From an uncultured Lentisphaeria bacterium (GTDB lineage: Bacteria > Verrucomicrobiota > Lentisphaeria > Victivallales > UBA1829): DNA of 64,000 nt. A program made the position numbers and the translations under genes. The stretch is taken from NCBI GenBank assembly GCA_949282305.1, contig CASDPB010000047.1:155514-219513 (forward strand), in the 5' to 3' direction. This document shows, in pieces, positions 15,466 through 53,975 of the stretch (position 1 is the first letter of the stretch; each line of letters begins with the position of its first letter). Below the pieces are notes generated by a model. The model searched no databases and was not told where the DNA came from. It was given only the letters and a program-made list of their open reading frames with translations.

Positions 15466-17034
15466 TCACCTGTCGGACTCTGTTTCCCGGTCAACGATTG
15501 AGAACTGATCCAGTATGATCTCCTTCCGGTTGTTTCCCGGCGGAGTCAGCCAGACAACAACCCGTTTGGAATCATAAGGAGTAAAGACGCACCCCTTTTC
15601 CCCGATGTTGAAAAACATCTGCACCTCTCCCCAGCAGCGCAGATGAAGCAGTCCCCATTTATCCGGGAAAACACGCCCGTCCGCATTCGGCTCCGCTTTT
15701 TTTCTTTCAGTCACCACGCCGACGGCATCGCCATCTCTCAGAGCCGCCGGAACCACCTGCCGCATTCTTTCCAGTTGAAACAGGTTGCCGTCATCCAGTC
15801 TGGCGTTCACAGTGTAAATGGCACTCGTCAGTATCCAGAGCAATATTGCAGTCAGCAGAAGAGCCCATCTCCATTTCCTCCCGTTCCGGCACCAGTTCGC
15901 CAAAATAGGCAGGGCCGCGCAAAAGAGCAGCATCCCGACGGAAATCACGGCAATCAGATAGCGGTGAATGACTCTCTCCGGATAAACAATCGGATGAATG
16001 TTGAAAATAATATAGCAGTGGCACAGATACGCCCCCAGAAAAGCAACGGCAAGAAAACGTCTCCTCAGATCCCCGTGGCATATCAGCACAAACGCGGCAA
16101 TACATCCCAGCGCAACGGAAAGATTCTGCGGAATGAAACTGTAATATTTCCCGTCCCAGCGGAATTGACGCAGGAAGCTGAACAGATACTCCAGGACGGA
16201 AGGGGCTTCCGGCTGGTTCTCCACAATCAGATGCGTATGGCAGAGCAGCTCATAACGTCCCAGTCTGCAGCCGTAAATTCCGTTGAGAATCAGAGTCTCC
16301 AGTCCGATGCCGGCAATGCAGCAGAAGAAGAAAAGCAGCATCCCCGGTGTAAGATGAACTTTTTTCCAGCGGAAACAATATTTTTCTGCCGGAGCAAACG
16401 CCAGAAACAAAAATATCCCCGGCGCCCAGAAAAAGGAGGTTTCCTTACAGCCGTAGGCAATCACCAGACAGCCCCCCGCAACCGCCATCAGCCAGCTTTG
16501 CCGCTGTTTCCCGTCAATAAAACGCAAAGTCACCAGCAGCGTCAGCAAAATCCAGACCGTGGCGGGAACCATCGGCAGAAACTGCGTCCCCTCATGGATG
16601 ATGACCGGATAAAAAGCATACAGCAGGACGACAAGCGGCGCCATGGCTGCGCTGAGAATCCGCCGCGCCAGAAGAAAAAGCACGAGCCCTCCTGCGCAAT
16701 AGCATAAAATCGGATACAGATAATACAGATAAATGGAATAACCGAAAAGTTTGCAGAACGCAACAGCAGGCCAGATCAATCCCCAGCGCAGCAAATGATG
16801 ATCCGGCTGCAACGGCAGAAACGTCCCGTTCTCAAGAAATACGCGGATCAGGAACCACTTATGGATTGCATCCCCTGATTTTGCAATAAACTGCAGGTTG
16901 CAGACAATAACAAACAAAAGGAACAAAAAGACCCACAGGCACTGCCGTCCCACGGGAAGTTTTCCGAACTGATCCGCAGCAATAGAAACTCTCATTACAA
17001 GTTTTTCATAGCAATGAACGATTTTCTGTTTCAT
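15466..17034 (-). CDS. polytopic membrane protein, probable GT-C-type (ArnT/PMT-like) glycosyltransferase
   Basis: 522 aa with many hydrophobic segments over the first ~400 aa and a soluble C-terminal tail. The ATG overlaps the upstream stop (ATGA at 17031-17034). Family call rests on architecture and context, not a strong motif. Confidence 0.5.
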   Translation of the reverse strand: MKQKIVHCYEKLVMRVSIAADQFGKLPVGRQCLWVFLFLLFVIVCNLQFIAKSGDAIHKWFLIRVFLENGTFLPLQPDHHLLRWGLIWPAVAFCKLFGYSIYLYYLYPILCYCAGGLVLFLLARRILSAAMAPLVVLLYAFYPVIIHEGTQFLPMVPATVWILLTLLVTLRFIDGKQRQSWLMAVAGGCLVIAYGCKETSFFWAPGIFLFLAFAPAEKYCFRWKKVHLTPGMLLFFFCCIAGIGLETLILNGIYGCRLGRYELLCHTHLIVENQPEAPSVLEYLFSFLRQFRWDGKYYSFIPQNLSVALGCIAAFVLICHGDLRRRFLAVAFLGAYLCHCYIIFNIHPIVYPERVIHRYLIAVISVGMLLFCAALPILANWCRNGRKWRWALLLTAILLWILTSAIYTVNARLDDGNLFQLERMRQVVPAALRDGDAVGVVTERKKAEPNADGRVFPDKWGLLHLRCWGEVQMFFNIGEKGCVFTPYDSKRVVVWLTPPGNNRKEIILDQFSIVDRETESDR

Positions 17035-18974
17035 ACCATATCCATTTCTTTTTTTATCTGGAGTTTTTCTTTGAATTTGACAATACTGTCAGCCAGGCGG
17101 GCAGAATCTCCGCGCGGACAGAAAATAATTTCCTCCGGATTCGCCTTAAAGAGCTCATGATTTGCCGGTGTATCTCCTAGAATGACAGGTTTCTTCATAG
17201 CTCTGTAAATATATGCTTTTCCCGGAATAGTGCGTGCAGCTTTCCTTATTTCCGCATTGAAATGTCCGGCAAGACAGAGGTCTGCACGTGAAATCTCAAA
17301 GGCAAGTTCCCGTTGACTTAGATAATCAAAAATAACAGCATTTGCAGAGGCAAGCCGTTTCTTCTGCATCTCCTTCAAAGGTCCAATAAGGATAAAACGA
17401 ATATCTGTTCTCTTTTTCAGAAGCAATATCGCATCAATAATCACTTCCACACCTTGAAGGGGTAAAATTGAGCCGAAATAAAGAACATTCAGTATTTTTC
17501 CGTCATAATCATATTTCGGATAAAGTGCCGGATCATAATAGGTTCTGTCAGCCTCAAGATACAGAACTTTAATCTTATTCTTGTCCGCCTTGAGAAATTT
17601 GATAAAATAACGACTGTGCGCCCTGGTATCGCAAATTATCTCATCGGCAAGGCGCAACGTGAGAACATCCAGACGATAAAGCAGATGTGCCGCCGGAGAT
17701 CTCCTCCGAAATATCTTGCGATCAGAAATAAAGGTATCATAAAGTGAAATGAAGAAGTCAATCGTAATCTTTTTGTGTCTAAACTTCCAATACCAGAAAG
17801 GCAGCACAAGCTGTGGTGAAAAACCACAGAAGAAATGATCAATTTTTCCCGCGGAAGTAAATAATAAATGCCAGTAGACATAAATCAGCCTCGCAAAATA
17901 ACTTCTGCCTGAACTTGCAATCCGGCTTACCCGCCGTCCACTGCTGTTCAATAATTTTATCTCCTGGGTATTGCGCAGATAATCACGATTTTTAGTGGAC
18001 ACAAAAAGAACTCTTTCGGATGAAGCATCTTGCCCCGGTGAACAATCGGTTTTGAATAAAATCTGTGTCATTCGCAATATCTTGATTCCAATAAAGGCAA
18101 ATACCTCACCGACAATCGTCCAGCATCTCGCTGCAACAAGCAATACGATCAACTGTGCCGCTTCCAGTGCTCCTGTTCCGAAAAACTGCAATACATATTC
18201 TCTTACTCCCAGCCCATTCGGTGTCGGACTTAAGAACCCAGCCACCCAGGCAACCGGATAGGCGACCCCAAGACGCGCCGCCGCCCCGAAGCTGGTATCT
18301 CCTATCGAAATGCAAAGCACTGCAAGCCCCATGCCGACACTGAACCACATTAAGATATATCCGACAAACAAGCCATAGACCGCAGTATTGCTCAACGAAT
18401 ATTCTGACTGGGATTTAAAAAGCCGGCAGAGCAACTTAAATCCCAGTCGGATAAAAAAAGGCAGAAATGCAAACGCTGAAATGCCGCAAGCAAAAACCGC
18501 AACTCCAGCAATGGCTGAATTCTTGAAAATGAACGGCAGAAAAAACAGCAGAAAGAAAAGTGATGACATAATCTGAAATAGATATTCAACGCAAATCGCT
18601 CCGGATGTCCGGCAGGGAGATGCTCCGCGCTTTATGCACCATACAGCCTTGCCGACAATATTCCAGATACCACCGGGAATGTAACGGGCAAATGCACTGG
18701 TAATGAAAATATCAATATAATCCAGCTTACTGATGTTTTCTTTTCTGTCATACTGTATATACATCCACAAGTATGCCATAAAAATAAAAGAAACACCATA
18801 CATCAGCGAGGCAGCAAGAAACAGAGCAATTCTGATATTCTTTACTGATTGCGACAGTTCCTGATATGAACCGGAAAAATTCCGATACACAAAATAAAAC
18901 ATGACAATGGCAAGAAACAACCCCAAAAGACGTAAAACTGTCTTTAACGGAAACTTGGATTCTTTGCGAATCAT
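17031..18974 (-). CDS. fusion protein: flippase-like TM domain (LPG_synthase_TM/UPF0104 type) + C-terminal GT4-type glycosyltransferase
   Basis: 647 aa. The N-terminal ~300 aa are polytopic, with FARYIPGGIWNIVGKA and SPTPNGLGVREY motifs seen in the MprF-like flippase-type domain. The C-terminal half has a GT1/GT4-like pattern (YFGSILPLQGVEVIIDA...IPGKAYIYRAMKKPVILGD). ATGA overlaps at both ends. Confidence 0.65.
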   Translation of the reverse strand: MIRKESKFPLKTVLRLLGLFLAIVMFYFVYRNFSGSYQELSQSVKNIRIALFLAASLMYGVSFIFMAYLWMYIQYDRKENISKLDYIDIFITSAFARYIPGGIWNIVGKAVWCIKRGASPCRTSGAICVEYLFQIMSSLFFLLFFLPFIFKNSAIAGVAVFACGISAFAFLPFFIRLGFKLLCRLFKSQSEYSLSNTAVYGLFVGYILMWFSVGMGLAVLCISIGDTSFGAAARLGVAYPVAWVAGFLSPTPNGLGVREYVLQFFGTGALEAAQLIVLLVAARCWTIVGEVFAFIGIKILRMTQILFKTDCSPGQDASSERVLFVSTKNRDYLRNTQEIKLLNSSGRRVSRIASSGRSYFARLIYVYWHLLFTSAGKIDHFFCGFSPQLVLPFWYWKFRHKKITIDFFISLYDTFISDRKIFRRRSPAAHLLYRLDVLTLRLADEIICDTRAHSRYFIKFLKADKNKIKVLYLEADRTYYDPALYPKYDYDGKILNVLYFGSILPLQGVEVIIDAILLLKKRTDIRFILIGPLKEMQKKRLASANAVIFDYLSQRELAFEISRADLCLAGHFNAEIRKAARTIPGKAYIYRAMKKPVILGDTPANHELFKANPEEIIFCPRGDSARLADSIVKFKEKLQIKKEMDMV

Positions 18975-19957
18975 TTTTCTTCTCCGTCAAACAGCTTTGC
19001 CCTTCTCATTGTATATTGTATGTCTTCAAGCATCATCCGATTGACAGCAAGCAGGTCGGCGACAAAAGCAATCATCCCGGCAATCACCCCAGTCAGCAGA
19101 AAAAGTGCCGCTAAAAGCAAAGATTGTATTTTTCCACTTCCAGCACCCTGAAAAAAATACCAGAGGAAACGGCAACCAAGAATGGAACCAATGCAGAAAC
19201 AACCAATCCCCAGGGTCATGAAAAAGCGGAACGGATAATAAAGAATCGCAATGCGGATCATGGTGAAAGCGGAACGCTTGATATATTGCGGAATGCTTTT
19301 CACCAGCCGAGATGGACGAAGATCCTCATTGACATGAATCGGCACGCACAGAATTCCAAGATTCTTGTAACCAGCCTGAATGATTGTCTCCAGCGTGTAG
19401 GTATAATTATTGAAGACATTCATCCGCAAGGCAGCCTCCCGGGAAAGAGCCCGGAATCCGCTGGGAGCGTCCTCCACCACCGTGCCGGAAAATTTCCGCA
19501 CCATGAAACTTCCGAATTTCTGAAGCATCTTCTTGAGCGGCGAAAAATGCCGGATCTCCGAAATCGGACGGGTTCCAATCACATACTGCGCCTTTCCGTC
19601 CAGAATCGGCTGTGTCAGCAGGGGAATATCACGCGCATCATATTGATTGTCCGCATCCGTATTGACGATCACATCCGCATCCGCCGACAGAGCCGCATGA
19701 AGCCCGCTCATGAATGCCCGCGCCAGACCGAGATTCGCATGATGCCGGACAATATGCTCCACTCCGCACGCCGCCGCCACCTCCGCCGTATTATCAGTCG
19801 AACCGTCATCAATCACCAGAAATTCCACCTTTTGAAAACCGGGCACTTCACGCGGCAGCTCCCGGATTGCCAGCGCCAGTGTCTCAGCTTCATTATAACA
19901 TGGAATCTGGATCACCAGTTTCCGCTCATGTCGCATAATATATTTTATGTTATTCAT
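18971..19957 (-). CDS. GT2 glycosyltransferase, polyprenyl-phosphate sugar synthase type (DPM1/ArnC/GtrB-like)
   Basis: 328 aa from ATG 19957 (GGGAG SD; ORF open to 20041). Motifs QIPCYNEAETL, VIDDGSTDNT and NTDADNQY, plus C-terminal TM helices. Confidence 0.85.
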   Translation of the reverse strand: MNNIKYIMRHERKLVIQIPCYNEAETLALAIRELPREVPGFQKVEFLVIDDGSTDNTAEVAAACGVEHIVRHHANLGLARAFMSGLHAALSADADVIVNTDADNQYDARDIPLLTQPILDGKAQYVIGTRPISEIRHFSPLKKMLQKFGSFMVRKFSGTVVEDAPSGFRALSREAALRMNVFNNYTYTLETIIQAGYKNLGILCVPIHVNEDLRPSRLVKSIPQYIKRSAFTMIRIAILYYPFRFFMTLGIGCFCIGSILGCRFLWYFFQGAGSGKIQSLLLAALFLLTGVIAGMIAFVADLLAVNRMMLEDIQYTMRRAKLFDGEEK

Positions 19958-20164
19958 CAAAAACTCCCTGCCGGAATAATAACTTTTAACACCACCTTCA
20001 ACATCAGACAAACCCAGGTATTTCCACTCAAAATACACCACATAAAATATATTATGCGAACTTAAATTCAGCCTCAGCCGACACTTGGAAACAGCCTGCA
20101 GTTAATAAAAATATTACAGAAAATAATTTTTTCAAGCAACGAGCAGTTTTTTATAAAAAGATAT

Positions 20165-48654: not shown

Positions 48655-48686
48655 GATTCCCCAATATAACTGTGTGGGAGATTTTT

Positions 48687-49715
48687 ATGCCTAAACCGGG
48701 AATAACCTACAAAGGAAAATCAATTGGGGCGTCTGGAAAAGGCGGCTCGAAAAAGAAAAACGGCGAAAGCGCCGGAAGCAGCAGATGGCTCTGGTTCTTC
48801 GCAGTTGTCCTGATCGTTGCCGCCATTGCTTTTGCCGGCTACTGGTTTACACGCAGGCAGACGGTGCTGATTCCCACGACTCAGGAGGTTTCCGAAACGA
48901 TGCGCCGTCTGACGGGCACCGGGGAGGAGGAGCCCGCGGTTCCGGCAAGCAATCTGCCGGTCAGCATTCCGGAGGATCAGGGCATCGCCATCAAGACTCT
49001 GGCAAACGGAGAAAAACTGTTCGCCATGAAGCGTTATTCCGCGGCAAGAGACCATGCGCGGCGCGCAATCGGGATTTTCAAGTATGCGGATCCGAACTGG
49101 CAGAAAAGCGTGGAGCTTCTGAATAAAGCCAGCACCCGGATTCTGAACGGCGACGGCAATTCGCCCGAAACATTCGTGTACACGGTTCAGCGCGGAGACA
49201 CCTTCACCAGAATAGGGGCGAAATTCGGAACAACCGCGGAAGCCGTCCAGCGGATCAATAAAATCTCCATTGCAAGAAGCGACCTGAAAATCGGTCAGGA
49301 GCTGACCGTTTACCATGGCAAATGGAATCTGAAGATCAGCAATGCCCGCAAGAAACTGTTCCTCTATGACGGGCAGAATCTCTTCAAGGTTTATCCGATC
49401 GGCGTTGCCATGGAGTTCAATTCCGCGCAGGGGCTTTACAAGCTCACTTCCAAGGTGAAGTATCCTATCTGGAAATACAAGGAAAGCAGTTACAATCCCG
49501 GCGATCCCCTGAATATTCTCGGCAGCCGGTATCTCGGCTGCGAAGACGCCGCCGATTACAAGATAAAGCAGCCGTTCCTGATTCATGGAACCAACAGGGC
49601 TGAAAATATAGGGAAAACAATCGCCGGACCGGGTTTCATCAGCATGAGGAACGAAGACATCAACGAGCTGTTTTCGATCATCCCGAACGGCATAGAAGTG
49701 GAAGTAATCAGATGA
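48687..49715 (+). CDS. membrane-anchored LysM + YkuD (L,D-transpeptidase)-like protein lacking the catalytic cysteine
   Basis: 342 aa from ATG 48687 (GGGAG SD). TM anchor WLWFFAVVLIVAAIAFAGYWF. LysM YTVQRGDTFTRIGAKFGTTAEAVQRIN. YkuD-like core LIHGTNRAENIGKTIAGPGFISMRNEDINELFSIIPNG, where the usual (S/H)xGC(I/V)RM is GPGFISM. Confidence 0.75.
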   Translation: MPKPGITYKGKSIGASGKGGSKKKNGESAGSSRWLWFFAVVLIVAAIAFAGYWFTRRQTVLIPTTQEVSETMRRLTGTGEEEPAVPASNLPVSIPEDQGIAIKTLANGEKLFAMKRYSAARDHARRAIGIFKYADPNWQKSVELLNKASTRILNGDGNSPETFVYTVQRGDTFTRIGAKFGTTAEAVQRINKISIARSDLKIGQELTVYHGKWNLKISNARKKLFLYDGQNLFKVYPIGVAMEFNSAQGLYKLTSKVKYPIWKYKESSYNPGDPLNILGSRYLGCEDAADYKIKQPFLIHGTNRAENIGKTIAGPGFISMRNEDINELFSIIPNGIEVEVIR

Positions 49716-49762: not shown

Positions 49763-50734
49763 ATGGCTGAAATCGTGCTTGAGTTTGAAAAACCGATTGC
49801 TGAGCTGGAAGCAAAACTTGCGGAATGGGAGTCTCTCAGCTCGTCCAACAATATGAGCGTTGACGACGAACTGAACGCTTTGAAGCGGAAGATTGAGGAG
49901 ACGAAAAGGAATGTCTACAGCTCCCTGACGCCGTGGCAGAGAGTTCAGCTCGCCCGTCATCCGAACCGCCCCTATACCCTGGACTATATAGAGCGCATTT
50001 TCACGGATTTTCTTGAATTCCACGGCGACCGCCGTTATGCGGACGATCCCGCCATCGTCGGAGGGTTCGCCAAACTCGACGGCAATCCCGTCATGGTCAT
50101 CGGGACTCAGAAAGGCAGAAACACCAAGGAAAACGTCTTCCGCAATTTCGGCTGTCCGCATCCGGAAGGCTACAGGAAAGCCCTGCGCCTCATGAAGATG
50201 GCGGATCTCGCGGGGGTTCCTGTCATCACCTTCATCGACACCCCCGGGGCATTCCCCGGAGTCGCATCCGAGGAACGCCACATCGGTGAAGCCATCGCGG
50301 TCAACCTGCGTGACATGTTTTCGCTGACGGTTCCCGTTGTCGCGGTCGTGATCGGCGAAGGAGGCAGCGGCGGCGCGCTCGGCATCGGCGTCGGCAACAC
50401 CGTGCTCATCATGGAAAACGCCTATTACTCCGTGATTACTCCCGAAGGCTGTGCGGCAATTCTGTGGAAAGACCGCGCCTACTCCGAAAAAGCAGCGGAG
50501 GCGCTTCATCTGACCGCAGGCGATCTGACGGAACTCGGTCTGGTTGACGGCATCGTCAAAGAACCTCTCGGAGGAGCGCACAAGGATTACGATACGGCTG
50601 CGGAGCTCCTGAAAAAGTCCGTAGTTTCCGCCCTCGGCAAATATGAAAAGATGTCCGGCGAAGAATTGAAAGCATCCCGTTACGAACGTTTCCGCAGTAT
50701 TGCATTCTATCGCGACCCCTCGGACGCAAAGTAA
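49763..50734 (+). CDS. accA: acetyl-CoA carboxylase carboxyltransferase alpha subunit
   Basis: 323 aa. Conserved RPYTLDYI, PVITFIDTPGAFPG, and VVIGEGGSGGALGIG. Confidence 0.95.
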   Translation: MAEIVLEFEKPIAELEAKLAEWESLSSSNNMSVDDELNALKRKIEETKRNVYSSLTPWQRVQLARHPNRPYTLDYIERIFTDFLEFHGDRRYADDPAIVGGFAKLDGNPVMVIGTQKGRNTKENVFRNFGCPHPEGYRKALRLMKMADLAGVPVITFIDTPGAFPGVASEERHIGEAIAVNLRDMFSLTVPVVAVVIGEGGSGGALGIGVGNTVLIMENAYYSVITPEGCAAILWKDRAYSEKAAEALHLTAGDLTELGLVDGIVKEPLGGAHKDYDTAAELLKKSVVSALGKYEKMSGEELKASRYERFRSIAFYRDPSDAK

Positions 50735-50748
50735 AAAGTGGCGGCATC

Positions 50749-51216
50749 ATGGATCATTTGAACATTCGTCCCGCGGAACCGGGGGATGTCGGAAAAATCT
50801 GGGAACTGCTTGCGGCTTATGCGCACGAGCGGCTTCTTCTCGCGCGTCCGCAGGAGGACATTCAGGAAAAGCTGAAAAATTTCCGCGTCGGGGAAATCGA
50901 CGGGGAATTCATCTGCTGTCTCGCCCTGCGGAATTTCGGCAACGGGCTCTACGAGGTGCGCTCGCTGGCAGTCCGCCGCGAATACAACAATCGCGGCATC
51001 GGTTCCAGACTGGTTCAGGGGGCGGTCGATCACCTGAAGACGCTGGGGAAGCCGTGCCGCGTTTTCGCCTTGACCTACCGCGCTCATTTTTTCCATCGTC
51101 TAGGCTTTCAAACTGTCGACAAGGAACTGTTCCCGCAAAAAATCTGGAGTGACTGCTCGAAATGCCCGAAGAAAGAACATTGCGACGAGACGGCGGTTCT
51201 GCTGGAACTGAACTGA
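50749..51216 (+). CDS. GNAT acetyltransferase of the ArgA/N-acetylglutamate-synthase-like type
   Basis: 155 aa. YEVRSLAVRREYNNRGIGSRLV acetyl-CoA motif and the C-terminal LFPQKIWSDCSKCPKKEHCDETA Cys cluster typical of this small GNAT subgroup. Confidence 0.75.
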   Translation: MDHLNIRPAEPGDVGKIWELLAAYAHERLLLARPQEDIQEKLKNFRVGEIDGEFICCLALRNFGNGLYEVRSLAVRREYNNRGIGSRLVQGAVDHLKTLGKPCRVFALTYRAHFFHRLGFQTVDKELFPQKIWSDCSKCPKKEHCDETAVLLELN

Positions 51217-53123
51217 TTCACCTGACGCCCCACCACGACGATCCGGAGGAAGCCGCGCAAATCCGCGACTCCTTCAAGGCGGTGCGCAGCGACAAGGTGG
51301 ATCTCTTTGTCTATGGCACCATGATGAACGATCATCATGTCCGTCTGCTGTTCAACCGCAAAGTGGACAGCGAACCGGCAATTCTCCATAATTATATGCG
51401 TGTCGTTCCTCCGGGAGCTTTCTTCTTCATCGTCAAACAGCACGGCGCGGTCACGCAGGGGCGCCTACTGAAAGATCTTACCCGCGAAGAGCTTGCGCGG
51501 ATCGACGCCTTCGAGGACGAAGGCAATCTCTATTACAGAAAAGTGGTCGTCGTCCGCACGCAGGAAAACCGGCGGCGGCGCTGCATGACCTACGTCGGCA
51601 ACATTTCCGCGCTCCAGAAATCCTTCGGGAAGGAAATTCTCTTTGAAGACCGTTACAGTCTCTATCTGGAGCGAAAAATCGACCAGATTCTCGAGAAGAT
51701 CGAACCGGACCGCCACGAAATCACGCGCCGCGCCCTCCGCGAACTCATGGGTTCGGCGGTGGACAGCCTGATCGAATCTCATTTCGACGGCAATTACATC
51801 TGCAACTATATCATGATTCAGGCATTCAATGATGCGCGGCCTCCCCTTCTGGCGAATGTCATGGCGATTGAGGAACTGCGTCCCTACGCGGACAATTATA
51901 TCCGCTTTGCCTGCAAGCACATCATTTTCAATCAGCTTGTGGAACTGATCCGCCACCATTTCCCCGACGCCGTCCGCCTCTCGAAGAAATATTTCAGACA
52001 CGGTGTTGCAATCCTGCTGGCGTTTCTTTACTACAACGGGCGTTATGAACGCATCCGCAGGTTGATGATGGAAAAGTCGCTGGATCGGATCGTTCCGGGG
52101 CGTCTTTACCGGGATTACGCAGTGCTCTGCATCAATCTGGTTGAGGAAATCTACAACCGCGATGAAATGGCGGCGATCTGCAACGATGTAGATCAGCACT
52201 GGTATTCCACACCGACGCCGCTGGGAGCGGAACTGGAATTCAGTCATCTCGGCGCGCGTGCAGTGGTGGCGGAGCCCGGCGAAGACCAGTTCTACGACGG
52301 TTTCTTCTGGTTCAACGACTTCGATCTCCAGCGCCGCACCTGGCGCATGGGGGGGCACGTGGATTCCCATAGGACAGTGGTCGCGGGAAACGAGCGTCAC
52401 CGCGGCTTTTTTGAATATGCCTTCGGACGCTTCAATATCGTCGGCGACCTCTCGCGCCCTCTGTTCGACTGTCCGTGGGCAATGTCCAAACTGATTAATG
52501 AAGCGGTGCGTTTTCTGGACATTCCTCCGCACAGTCTCCACATTTCCATGGAACTCTCCGGCGAAAAGCATTCGCACATCACCGCGGTGCCGCACAAATT
52601 CAGCGATCTGGCGTGTCTGCTGATGCTCGGGGGGGATCTGCGCAGGGATGACGAAGGCAGACTCCGCGAATGGCGTATCTTCAACAGGGAACTGGACACC
52701 AACATGCGCGGCTCCCTGAATTTCTCGGACCGCAAATACCATTACAGCCGTCCGGAGCAGAGCGAAGACGAGGCGTCGGACGTCATGGAATACAAGTTTC
52801 TGCGTCTGCGGGAGGAAGAGACGGACTACTCCAATGTGATCGTGGCATTGAAAGGTTATCAGTTCGGCACCCACGCCCGCCCGATTTCCATTCCGAAACA
52901 AGGGCAGCCGGAGCTTCCGGAACAGCTTTTTCTGCGTGAGTGGGCGGCTTCTCCCCAGTCGCTCTCCATTCCGGAAATCCAGGCGTTCGTCGATACGGTC
53001 GAACGGGGGCTCTGCGAAGAACACAACGTGAAGAAAGTGAATAAACGCGGACAGACCTATCTCGAAAACATCTATTTCACGCTGCTGGAAAGGAATGCCT
53101 ATGTCGCAAAGAATGCCAGATAG
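51162..53123 (+). CDS. fusion protein: N-terminal gamma-glutamylcyclotransferase (GGCT/AIG2-like) domain + about 500-aa uncharacterised domain
   Basis: 653 aa if ATG 51162 is used (55-nt overlap with the GNAT gene; alternative GTG starts at 51282 and 51297). GGCT motifs DLFVYGTMMN and RIDAFEDEGNLYYRKVVVV. The remainder matches no family I recognise. The 3' end overlaps murI by 29 nt. Confidence 0.65.
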   Translation: MPEERTLRRDGGSAGTELIHLTPHHDDPEEAAQIRDSFKAVRSDKVDLFVYGTMMNDHHVRLLFNRKVDSEPAILHNYMRVVPPGAFFFIVKQHGAVTQGRLLKDLTREELARIDAFEDEGNLYYRKVVVVRTQENRRRRCMTYVGNISALQKSFGKEILFEDRYSLYLERKIDQILEKIEPDRHEITRRALRELMGSAVDSLIESHFDGNYICNYIMIQAFNDARPPLLANVMAIEELRPYADNYIRFACKHIIFNQLVELIRHHFPDAVRLSKKYFRHGVAILLAFLYYNGRYERIRRLMMEKSLDRIVPGRLYRDYAVLCINLVEEIYNRDEMAAICNDVDQHWYSTPTPLGAELEFSHLGARAVVAEPGEDQFYDGFFWFNDFDLQRRTWRMGGHVDSHRTVVAGNERHRGFFEYAFGRFNIVGDLSRPLFDCPWAMSKLINEAVRFLDIPPHSLHISMELSGEKHSHITAVPHKFSDLACLLMLGGDLRRDDEGRLREWRIFNRELDTNMRGSLNFSDRKYHYSRPEQSEDEASDVMEYKFLRLREEETDYSNVIVALKGYQFGTHARPISIPKQGQPELPEQLFLREWAASPQSLSIPEIQAFVDTVERGLCEEHNVKKVNKRGQTYLENIYFTLLERNAYVAKNAR

Positions 53124-53934
53124 GACCAATCCGCCGGACAATCGTCCCATCGGCGTTTTCGATTCCGGAATCGGAGGGCTGACTGTCGTGCGCGCCCTGC
53201 GGTGCGCCCTGCCGAATGAGGACATCTGCTACCTCGGCGACACGGCGCGTGTCCCCTACGGCAGTAAATCCGTGGATTCGATCATCCGTTTTGCCGGGGA
53301 AGACGCCGCATTTCTTGTGGAAAAAGGGGTCAAGGCGCTGATCGTTGCCTGCAACACCGCTTCCGCCGTGGCAATGGATTCCCTGCGGAAACACTTTCCC
53401 GCCCTTCCCGTCATGGGAGTGATTGAAGCCGGGATCGAAGCCGTCATGCGAACCGGCGCGGAACGGATCACGGTCATCGGGACACGTGCAACGGTCAGCA
53501 GCGACGCCTACCGGCGCGGACTTCACGAACGCAGACCGTCGCTCCTGATCGAAAGCATTCCGTGCCCGCTTTTTGTCCCGCTGGCTGAAGAGGGGCAGTT
53601 TGAGGGCAAACTTGCGGAGGAGGCGTTTGACCTTTATCTTTCGCATCTGCGCAGATCGCCGCCGGAGGTGCTTCTGCTCGGCTGTACGCATTATCCGCTT
53701 TTCCGCCAGGCGCTGGAACGTTATTTTGAATGAAAAGTGAGGATCATCGACAGTGCGGAGGCGTGCGCGGAATCCGCACGTGTGTTTCTTGATGGAAATT
53801 CCATTGCGGCAAGCCTTGCAAAAACAGGGAATGTACGCTATTATTTTACGGATCTGCCGTCCGACTTCAACGGCGGTCTGTGGCGTTTTCTCGGCAGCGC
53901 GCCTTCCTATATGGAAAAAGCGCAGCTGGGATAG
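53095..53934 (+). pseudogene. murI: glutamate racemase reading frame interrupted by one in-frame TGA (53731-53733): pseudogene, assembly error or read-through gene
   Basis: IGVFDSGIGGLTV, first catalytic motif VACNTAS, second LGCTHYP, then ..ERYFE*KVRIIDSAEACAE.. continuing in the same frame to TAG 53932-53934. The combined length of 279 codons is normal for MurI. Confidence 0.75.
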
Positions 53935-53975
53935 TCGGAAAACAAAAATGAATCCTATTCGGAGAAGAAAAAGTA

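Follow-up and report, generated by a model that had tools for sequence, protein, structure and literature searches.

A 64,000-nucleotide stretch of contig CASDPB010000047.1 from an uncultured Lentisphaeria bacterium (hereafter the window, whose positions serve as coordinates throughout) carries a gene for a 653-amino-acid protein, in which a gamma-glutamyl cyclotransferase domain is fused to about 500 residues that resemble carboxylate-amine ligases in their predicted fold. We propose, with a probability of roughly 0.55, that this fusion protein is bifunctional, both forming and cleaving gamma-glutamyl amide bonds, and is tied to the glutamate pool. The gene and its parts are as follows:

51162-53123, plus strand: GGCT-amidoligase-like fusion open reading frame (ORF), 653 amino acids, ATG start; from the ORF list and homologue searches
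51303-51602, plus strand: GGACT/AIG2-type gamma-glutamyl cyclotransferase domain, residues 48-147; from Pfam PF06094, PDB profile matches and Foldseek
51609-52196, plus strand: family-specific helical region, residues ~150-345; helices in the AlphaFold (AF2) model, with a predicted local distance difference test score (pLDDT) of 76-98
52197-52871, plus strand: predicted carboxylate-amine-ligase-like core of the glutamine synthetase/PafA/amidoligase fold, residues ~346-570; from the AF2 model, Foldseek and conserved residues
52872-53123, plus strand: C-terminal helical subdomain, residues ~571-653 and the stop codon; AF2 helices with pLDDT >90

A first-pass annotation of this DNA had recognised a gamma-glutamylcyclotransferase/AIG2-like domain near the N-terminus from its motifs and an acidic residue, and this assignment was borne out by profile searches. 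Residues 48-147 match the Pfam family GGACT (PF06094; E 1.7e-16, 61.3 bits against a cut-off of 22.8), as do 20 of the 20 members of a first alignment of homologues and 41 of the 50 members of a broader one. The YGT motif occupies residues 51-53 (VYGTMM, residues 50-55) and the putative catalytic glutamate is E118 in the motif IDAFE (codon 51513-51515). The YGT motif as well as D115, F117 and E118 were invariant among 20 homologues, and a profile alignment with PDB sequences placed E118 on the LDDFE(D) motif of mouse GGACT (1vkb); the catalytic glutamate of human GGACT is E82, in LDDFE. Sequence and profile searches of the PDB identified the Arabidopsis AIG2-like structures 2jqv/2g0q as the closest solved sequences, followed by mammalian GGACT, and Foldseek returned a set of GGCT-fold matches (2g0q, 2jqv, 2rbh/3cry, 1vkb and 3juc; E 8e-7 to 3e-3, probability 1.0). 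These nearest solved relatives, namely plant AIG2-like proteins (At5g39720, At3g28950) and mammalian GGACT, have the YGT and DxFE motifs in common with the domain studied here, but are single-domain proteins of ~150-170 residues without a ligase-like extension. Judged by its sequence, the segment from residue 48 to 147 is a bona fide GGACT/AIG2-type cyclotransferase domain with its predicted catalytic glutamate intact, and the N-terminal module is active-looking as a cyclotransferase.

The remainder of the protein, which the first-pass annotation could not place in any family, likewise resisted assignment at the sequence level in our searches. It matched nothing in Pfam, NCBIfam, PHROGs, PADLOC or the PDB sequences, and the curated libraries gave no match whether queried with single sequences or with profiles of 20 or 50 sequences. 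An initial full-length AlphaFold model (pLDDT 74) gave structural matches to PafA and Dop besides those to GGCT-fold proteins. A second model (AF2), covering residues 150-653 and built from a 50-sequence alignment that included distant relatives, was confident (pLDDT 92; predicted template modelling score, pTM, 0.92). When this model was compared with the PDB using Foldseek, the best nine matches were all to PafA (the Pup ligase) or Dop (the depupylase), with E-values of 0.011-0.6, probabilities of 0.72-0.99 and ~230-385 aligned columns. They were followed by a weak match to the glutamine synthetase 4s17 (E ~1, probability 0.13), and no glutamate-cysteine ligase structure was found among the top 50 PDB matches. 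Against the viral models of BFVD, the top match and every named protein among the 16 best were annotated as 'amidoligase' (best E 1.9e-3, probability 0.99). The model contains six main strands (residues 354-360, 398-401, 416-425, 456-464, 522-528 and 539-548) on helices, together with a C-terminal helical part. This pattern is compatible with the description of PafA and Dop, in which the curved six-stranded sheet of the carboxylate-amine ligases packs on helices and is accompanied by a small C-terminal domain (PMC3511204). Residues ~150-345 showed neither a family nor a fold match; the second half of this helical region (residues ~245-345) is also kept in relatives that lack the GGCT domain.

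On the strength of these models, we consider it probable that the C-terminal region has a glutamine-synthetase-like carboxylate-amine ligase fold. This is a statement at the level of the fold, and we assign the domain neither to PF12224 nor to the PafA/Dop family. The first-pass annotation had named, as an outcome that would count against its view, membership of the region in a well-known family with an unrelated role; the predicted fold instead resembles those of PafA, Dop and amidoligases, for which gamma-glutamyl amide bonds are the very bonds formed or cleaved.

Conservation of individual residues is consistent with such a fold. Across 50 sequences with identities down to 21%, the invariant or near-invariant positions were E357, E359, D401, H403, E418, H457, H460, R505, E510, R548 and K564. 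The characteristic residues of the ligase-like core are E357-x-E359 (52230-52238), D401/H403, E418, H457/H460/E464, R505 and E543/K545/R548, and the C-terminal subdomain contains conserved PE..F..W...P and G..E motifs, with W594, G616, E620 and N645 conserved. The conserved charged residues are of the type and in the order expected of a putative metal/ATP site. We compared them with a bona fide Amidoligase_2 protein, ORF23 of phage UFV-P2, and 106 of its homologues, in which the conserved motifs are GIEVELE, W..DGSLR, GkEYiF, STHIHLD and VEFR, or in general form GxExE, W..D.S, G.EY.F, S.H.H.D and E.R. The fusion family has counterparts in the same order, at different spacing: GAELEFS, W..GGHVDSH, RGFFEY(AF), HSLHISME and MEYKF(..R). 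A permissive hhalign run paired both motif sets in that order, without statistical significance; an hmmsearch of the family core against the 106 Amidoligase_2 homologues was not significant, and the GxExE strand was the sole element reproducibly recovered in these hhalign and hmmsearch comparisons. There was no Pfam match to Pup_ligase (PF03136), no match to PafA or Dop in PDB sequence and profile searches, and no Pfam or NCBIfam match to glutamine synthetase or glutamate-cysteine ligase.

Homologues of the fusion protein are numerous and mostly retain both modules. A word-indexed search yielded 170 clusters at 47-97% identity, nearly all of 620-675 residues and covering the whole query. Clusters with names in NCBI, JGI and nr came from metagenome-assembled genomes of Lentisphaerota/Victivallales and were called just 'gamma-glutamylcyclotransferase' or 'hypothetical protein'; the closest genomes, at 97% identity, are human-gut Lentisphaeria assemblies. 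An exhaustive HMMER search of 1.84 billion proteins with a profile of the C-terminal 504 residues retrieved 117 representatives, most of which carry a GGACT domain in front. The weakest of these matches were short proteins aligned over residues ~540-650 only; they contained no informative Pfam domain, are probably fragments and were set aside. A metagenome scan added >563 relatives, and the alignment of every complete one, down to 28% identity, begins with the GGCT domain and runs through to the C-terminus. A scan of viral contigs found no relatives, which indicates that the family is cellular rather than phage-borne.

A subfamily of 470-490 residues, matching profile positions ~95-500, lacks the GGCT domain. 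In two of the three loci examined for this subfamily, the immediate convergent neighbour is a separate GGACT gene (L065, 237 residues, E 3.5e-18; L067, 395 residues, E 2.1e-19); the contig of the third locus is just 8 kb long. This recurrence of the GGCT and ligase-like modules as either fused or adjacent genes is a classical sign of functional coupling, and the existence of the stand-alone subfamily indicates that the C-terminal module has a function of its own. The larger of the two separate GGACT genes (L067:1711-2898, minus strand) also encodes an N-terminal S-adenosylmethionine-dependent methyltransferase domain (Methyltransf_11, E 1e-6), an unusual fusion for a GGACT protein.

Pairing of a ligase with a cyclotransferase has precedents among separately encoded proteins. 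Iyer, Abhiman, Burroughs and Aravind reportedly predicted, in Mol BioSyst 5:1636 in 2009, that Amidoligase_2 proteins pair with AIG2/GGCT proteins in phages, prophages and Firmicutes. In LUZ24-like phages, other phages and clostridial prophages, genes for amidoligases and for gamma-glutamyl cyclotransferases are neighbours (PMC3890496, PMC5498523, PMC11253131, PMC11318856). The Amidoligase_2 (PF12224) and AIG2 pairs, such as ORF23 and ORF29 of Pseudomonas phage UFV-P2 and the cassette of Pseudoalteromonas phage PSA-HP1, are like the fusion family in that a protein of glutamine-synthetase-like amidoligase fold, a fold predicted for the fusion family, is partnered with a GGACT-family cyclotransferase; moreover, the viral structures closest to the C-terminal model are amidoligases, whose conserved motifs have putative counterparts in the same order. 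They differ in several respects. In the protein studied here, both parts lie in one polypeptide with the GGCT domain N-terminal, the ligase-like part has an extra helical region of ~100-200 residues, and the family has neither a PF12224 match in Pfam nor significance in hhalign. Its genes also lack GATase, ATP-grasp and COOH-NH2 ligase partners, and are cellular genes that lie among those of central metabolism.

PafA and Dop of Actinobacteria provide the best matches among solved structures, with a beta-sheet cradle and a small C-terminal domain (PMC3511204). Their chemistry takes place on a gamma-glutamyl amide or isopeptide bond and they represent ligase and amidase versions of one fold. Nevertheless, they are only ~10% identical to the C-terminal module, with TM-scores of 0.25-0.39, the module has no Pup_ligase match in Pfam, and no Pup, proteasome or Mpa genes were present in any annotated neighbourhood examined. 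The first catalytic strand of PafA lies at its extreme N-terminus, whereas that of the fusion protein follows 350 residues; the helical region of residues ~150-345 that precedes this strand has no counterpart in PafA/Dop or in Amidoligase_2. Furthermore, bond breaking in the fusion protein would fall to a cyclotransferase and not to a paralogue of Dop. ATP-dependent synthesis of a gamma-glutamyl amide, followed by its removal as 5-oxoproline, is also known from the gamma-glutamyl cycle, in which glutamate-cysteine ligase has a glutamine-synthetase-like fold and is followed by GGCT/ChaC, and from the BtrJ/BtrG pair. The enzymes of both systems are separate proteins, and BtrJ belongs to the ATP-grasp rather than the glutamine-synthetase-like ligases. 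The fusion family would work like the amidoligase and AIG2 systems and the PafA/Dop writer and eraser pair, yet it falls outside both by sequence membership.

The boundaries of the gene given by the first-pass annotation agree with the ORF list and with conservation, including the ATG at 51162, the length of 653 residues and the overlaps with the genes on either side. The upstream GNAT gene ends at 51216 and overlaps the fusion gene by 55 nucleotides, an overlap that is identical in an orthologue with 62% identity to the fusion protein (L001). At the 3' end, the overlap with murI is 29 nucleotides from the murI ATG at 53095, and would be 23 or 11 nucleotides from later murI ATGs. Upstream of the conserved region, ATG 51162 is the sole ATG, the alternative start being TTG 51180. 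The first ~25 residues are conserved in close relatives only and are disordered in the model. The family generally varies at its N-terminus, and one homologue of 733 residues (P0020) has a low-complexity extension of ~100 residues, rich in serine, alanine and glycine, before its GGCT domain. An antisense ORF (51465-53225, minus strand, 586 residues) spans nearly the whole fusion gene; we rejected it as a shadow ORF of a GC-rich gene, since all conservation is on the plus strand.

Gene context was compared across 63 loci, 55 of them from a scan of one genome per species and eight from contig look-ups. The following genes adjoin the fusion gene in the window:

48672-49715, plus strand: LysM and YkuD (L,D-transpeptidase-like) gene, from Pfam LysM and YkuD; often at the head of the syntenic block
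49763-50734, plus strand: accA, acetyl-CoA carboxylase carboxyltransferase alpha; Pfam ACCA, E 5.6e-141
50749-51216, plus strand: GNAT acetyltransferase, 155 amino acids, upstream of the fusion gene; Pfam Acetyltransf_1/7/10
53095-53936, plus strand: murI (glutamate racemase), interrupted; TIGR00067, 210.8 bits against a cut-off of 146.65

The gene order that the first-pass annotation had noticed in this single genome recurs in related genomes. An orthologous GNAT gene lies directly upstream of the fusion gene in 51 of the 61 evaluable loci, and accA precedes it in all 51; of 53 loci, 30 have murI immediately downstream, four have it displaced and 19 lack it, as do all distant clades. The LysM-YkuD gene is found upstream in many Lentisphaerota loci. 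In one lineage (P0018; 794 residues, 73% identity, 42 member sequences), the GNAT, GGCT and ligase-like parts form a single ORF: the GNAT stop codon is missing, and ...AVLLELN runs straight into MEKKH... By contrast, neither GNAT nor murI accompanies the gene in Kiritimatiellota and some Lentisphaerota whose proteins are 50-58% identical. A Na+-coupled NSS transporter, correctly identified by the first-pass annotation (PF00209, E 2e-52), and the putative pot genes are adjacent in the nearest relatives alone. A type II CRISPR-Cas locus with Cas9, Cas1 and Cas2 follows the fusion gene in one relative (L004:8112-12930), an association that is probably incidental.

The description of the GNAT as ArgA-type calls for a correction. 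Its nearest solved relatives are the acetyltransferase domains of N-acetylglutamate synthase (NAGS), with 2r8v the best PDB match (E 2.8e-11), but it scored below the cut-offs of the ArgA equivalog models (TIGR01890, 57.7 against 202.85; NF003641, 62.3 against 344); its best NCBIfam model was NF005840 'N-acetyltransferase', at 152.4 bits against a cut-off of 154. The murI gene has an in-frame TGA at 53731-53733 (codon 213), beyond which the conserved MurI C-terminus continues in frame, such that the ORF as read encodes 212 residues, compared with ~270 in intact orthologues. The five closest relatives (L009-L013) have the glycine codons GGC, GGA or GGG at this position. Judging from these alignments, the TGA is a G-to-T nonsense mutation or a sequencing error, and the gene is not intact as read. 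We rejected an alternative genetic code as the explanation, as no other gene in the window has an in-frame TGA and the relatives have GGN at this codon. Elsewhere in the window, the segment at ~15466-20041 has a G+C content of 0.46, compared with 0.55 outside it, and contains three minus-strand genes (522, 647 and 356 residues) for polytopic membrane or glycosyltransferase-like proteins; it looks like a horizontally acquired cell-surface glycosylation island.

A different neighbourhood surrounds the fusion gene in a clade at 33-45% identity. In 15 of its 19 evaluable loci, a homocitrate-synthase-like HMGL gene is directly upstream. Downstream of the fusion gene, a gene for a conserved 170-residue protein and one for a TPR protein are followed by genes for aconitate hydratase (924 bits with NF005558) and NADP-isocitrate dehydrogenase (662 bits with TIGR00183). 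The ~170-residue protein and then the TPR protein of ~245 residues were always found between the fusion gene and aconitase (L113:6488-7758 and the equivalents in L097, L098, L102, L110 and L114). The first of these had no family match, and the two could be further partners. Re-citrate synthases are relatives of homocitrate synthase and are routinely misannotated (PMC12016533). We infer that the HMGL gene, which scored below every equivalog cut-off, encodes a Re-citrate synthase. The operon as a whole resembles the oxidative branch leading to 2-oxoglutarate, from which glutamate is made. The lineage at <33% identity has neither the GNAT/murI nor the citrate operon context. A nitroreductase gene beside the fusion gene in two distant loci was dropped as a candidate partner when it did not recur in a clustering of 59 loci; the neighbours of 411 and 414 residues in those two loci are unrelated to each other.

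The first-pass annotation had viewed the GNAT, the cyclotransferase and MurI as three physically interlocked glutamate activities. The link with the GNAT and the glutamate-centred context stood up, the latter being seen also in the citrate-to-2-oxoglutarate operon of an independent clade; the three-way interlock was supported only in part, given that the murI linkage is dispensable, that murI is interrupted in this window and that the GNAT is not an ArgA equivalog. In addition, accA is linked as tightly as the GNAT, which suggests that part of the apparent interlocking is lineage synteny.

In the reaction of GGACT-family enzymes, a gamma-glutamyl group cyclises as its free alpha-amine attacks the gamma-amide, which yields 5-oxoproline and the amine. 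Glutamine-synthetase-like ligases consume Mg-ATP to activate a carboxylate, in the classical case that at the gamma position of glutamate, as an acyl-phosphate that is then joined to an amine, and Dop runs as an amidase. Architecture, conservation, the alternation of fused and split forms, similarity in fold and gene contexts are observed; from this established superfamily chemistry, we infer ATP dependence, glutamate as the source of the activated carboxylate, and either sequential or opposed action of the two modules. The C-terminal module (residues ~245-653) would form a gamma-glutamyl-X amide via an acyl-phosphate or, like Dop, open it, at the cost of ATP; the activated carboxylate would most plausibly be the gamma-carboxylate of glutamate, as in glutamine synthetase, glutamate-cysteine ligase and PafA. 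The N-terminal module would remove the gamma-glutamyl group as 5-oxoproline, and the substrate that carries the bond may be a small molecule or a peptide derived from glutamate. In Lentisphaerota, the NAGS-like GNAT that is co-translated with the fusion gene may cap or supply the glutamyl alpha-amine.

Several observations weigh against this make-and-break function. None of 50 family members had a Pfam ligase-family match in the C-terminal region, even at E<=10, and a PDB profile search with that region found nothing. The Foldseek E-values are modest, with low template modelling scores (TM-scores of 0.23-0.39) and large root-mean-square deviations, and hhalign against the Amidoligase_2 homologues gave a probability of ~1% (E 0.05-0.14). 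The synteny with GNAT and murI, which includes accA, may partly reflect lineage inheritance, and besides the GGCT module no partner gene is kept across all clades. Finally, if ligase and cyclotransferase acted on one and the same bond, the result would be a futile, ATP-consuming cycle unless a step intervened or the substrates of the modules differed. The make-and-break function would thus call for an intervening step such as acetylation by the GNAT, for different substrates, or for another net reaction such as the opening of 5-oxoproline.

Other interpretations of the protein were considered. The C-terminal module might not be a ligase at all, being instead a Dop-like amidase, a sensor of glutamate or nucleotide, or a new fold that scaffolds or regulates the GGCT domain and whose similarity to ligases is spurious. 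The non-significance of all sequence and profile comparisons with ligase families and the TM-scores of just 0.23-0.39 would fit such a role, and the PafA/Dop fold supports hydrolysis as well as ligation (PMC7947786, PMC3511204). We nevertheless regard it as unlikely, given that two independent structure libraries point to a single superfamily and rank no other fold near the top, that the strongly conserved charged residues look, in kind and in sequence order, like those of a metal/ATP site, and that the stand-alone subfamily shows the module to have its own function. We lean slightly further from the idea that the protein is a third type of ATP-dependent 5-oxoprolinase, in which the GGCT fold would bind 5-oxoproline and the glutamine-synthetase-like module would phosphorylate its lactam carbonyl and open the ring to L-glutamate. 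No enzyme of either fold is known for this reaction, and the known 5-oxoprolinases (OplAH, PxpABC) are unrelated. In its broader form, which we hold to be no more probable, the protein would interconvert glutamate and 5-oxoproline and recycle the latter as an unavoidable damage product in anaerobes. 5-Oxoproline forms unavoidably from glutamate, glutamine and gamma-glutamyl phosphate, and its recycling needs an ATP-dependent enzyme (PMC13274462). Such an activity would raise no futile-cycle problem; the folds of both modules handle the pair of 5-oxoproline and gamma-glutamyl phosphate, and the gene lies in glutamate-producing operons and beside the glutamate-consuming GNAT and MurI.

A gamma-glutamyl protecting-group cycle, for which BtrJ and BtrG of butirosin biosynthesis set the precedent, seems to us quite improbable. 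The ligase would gamma-glutamylate one amine of a substrate, the GNAT would acetylate it elsewhere, and the GGCT domain would strip the group off as 5-oxoproline. Such a cycle would account for the presence of writer and eraser modules in one protein and for a GNAT that is translationally coupled through the 55-nucleotide overlap, adjacent in 51 of 61 loci and fused in the P0018 lineage. The GNAT, however, is missing from all distant clades that keep the fusion, and so cannot belong to a core mechanism, and the neighbours in Lentisphaerota are housekeeping genes rather than a biosynthetic cluster. We are most sceptical of the suggestion made by the first-pass annotation, that gamma-glutamyl-type linkages are modified or turned over on the stem peptides of peptidoglycan or on muropeptides. 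The LysM-YkuD gene and murI do flank the block in many Lentisphaerota loci, and alteration of peptidoglycan side chains is the role proposed for a phage cassette of amidoligase, GGCT and ATP-grasp (PMC5498523, PMC11253131). Against this, the N-terminal alignment shows no signal peptide or membrane segment and the protein has no domain for cell-wall binding. In distant clades the gene is no longer linked to murI and LysM-YkuD and has genes of central carbon metabolism around it, and the family is absent from viral contigs. GGCT enzymes act on L-gamma-glutamyl groups with a free alpha-amine, and the D-iso-glutamate of stem peptides is N-acylated, which also counts against a role in the cell wall. 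The further idea of the first-pass annotation, turnover of gamma-glutamyl amines or polyamines in view of the nearby potABCD, is conjectural.

Three quarters of this polypeptide had so far gone unrecognised, leaving a region of ~500 residues unannotated in hundreds of genomes, and the similarity in fold turns an orphan into a testable two-activity enzyme. If 5-oxoproline salvage were its true function, a gap in metabolite repair would be filled, and a 5-oxoprolinase would explain the siting of the gene in operons that produce 2-oxoglutarate and glutamate and beside enzymes that consume glutamate. On the make-and-break function that we favour, the partnership of amidoligase and AIG2 proteins, which is predicted and biochemically uncharacterised, would reach beyond phages into central glutamate metabolism in anaerobes of gut and sediment, and its fused form would offer a single protein in which to measure the predicted coupling of gamma-glutamyl amide synthesis with cyclotransferase cleavage.

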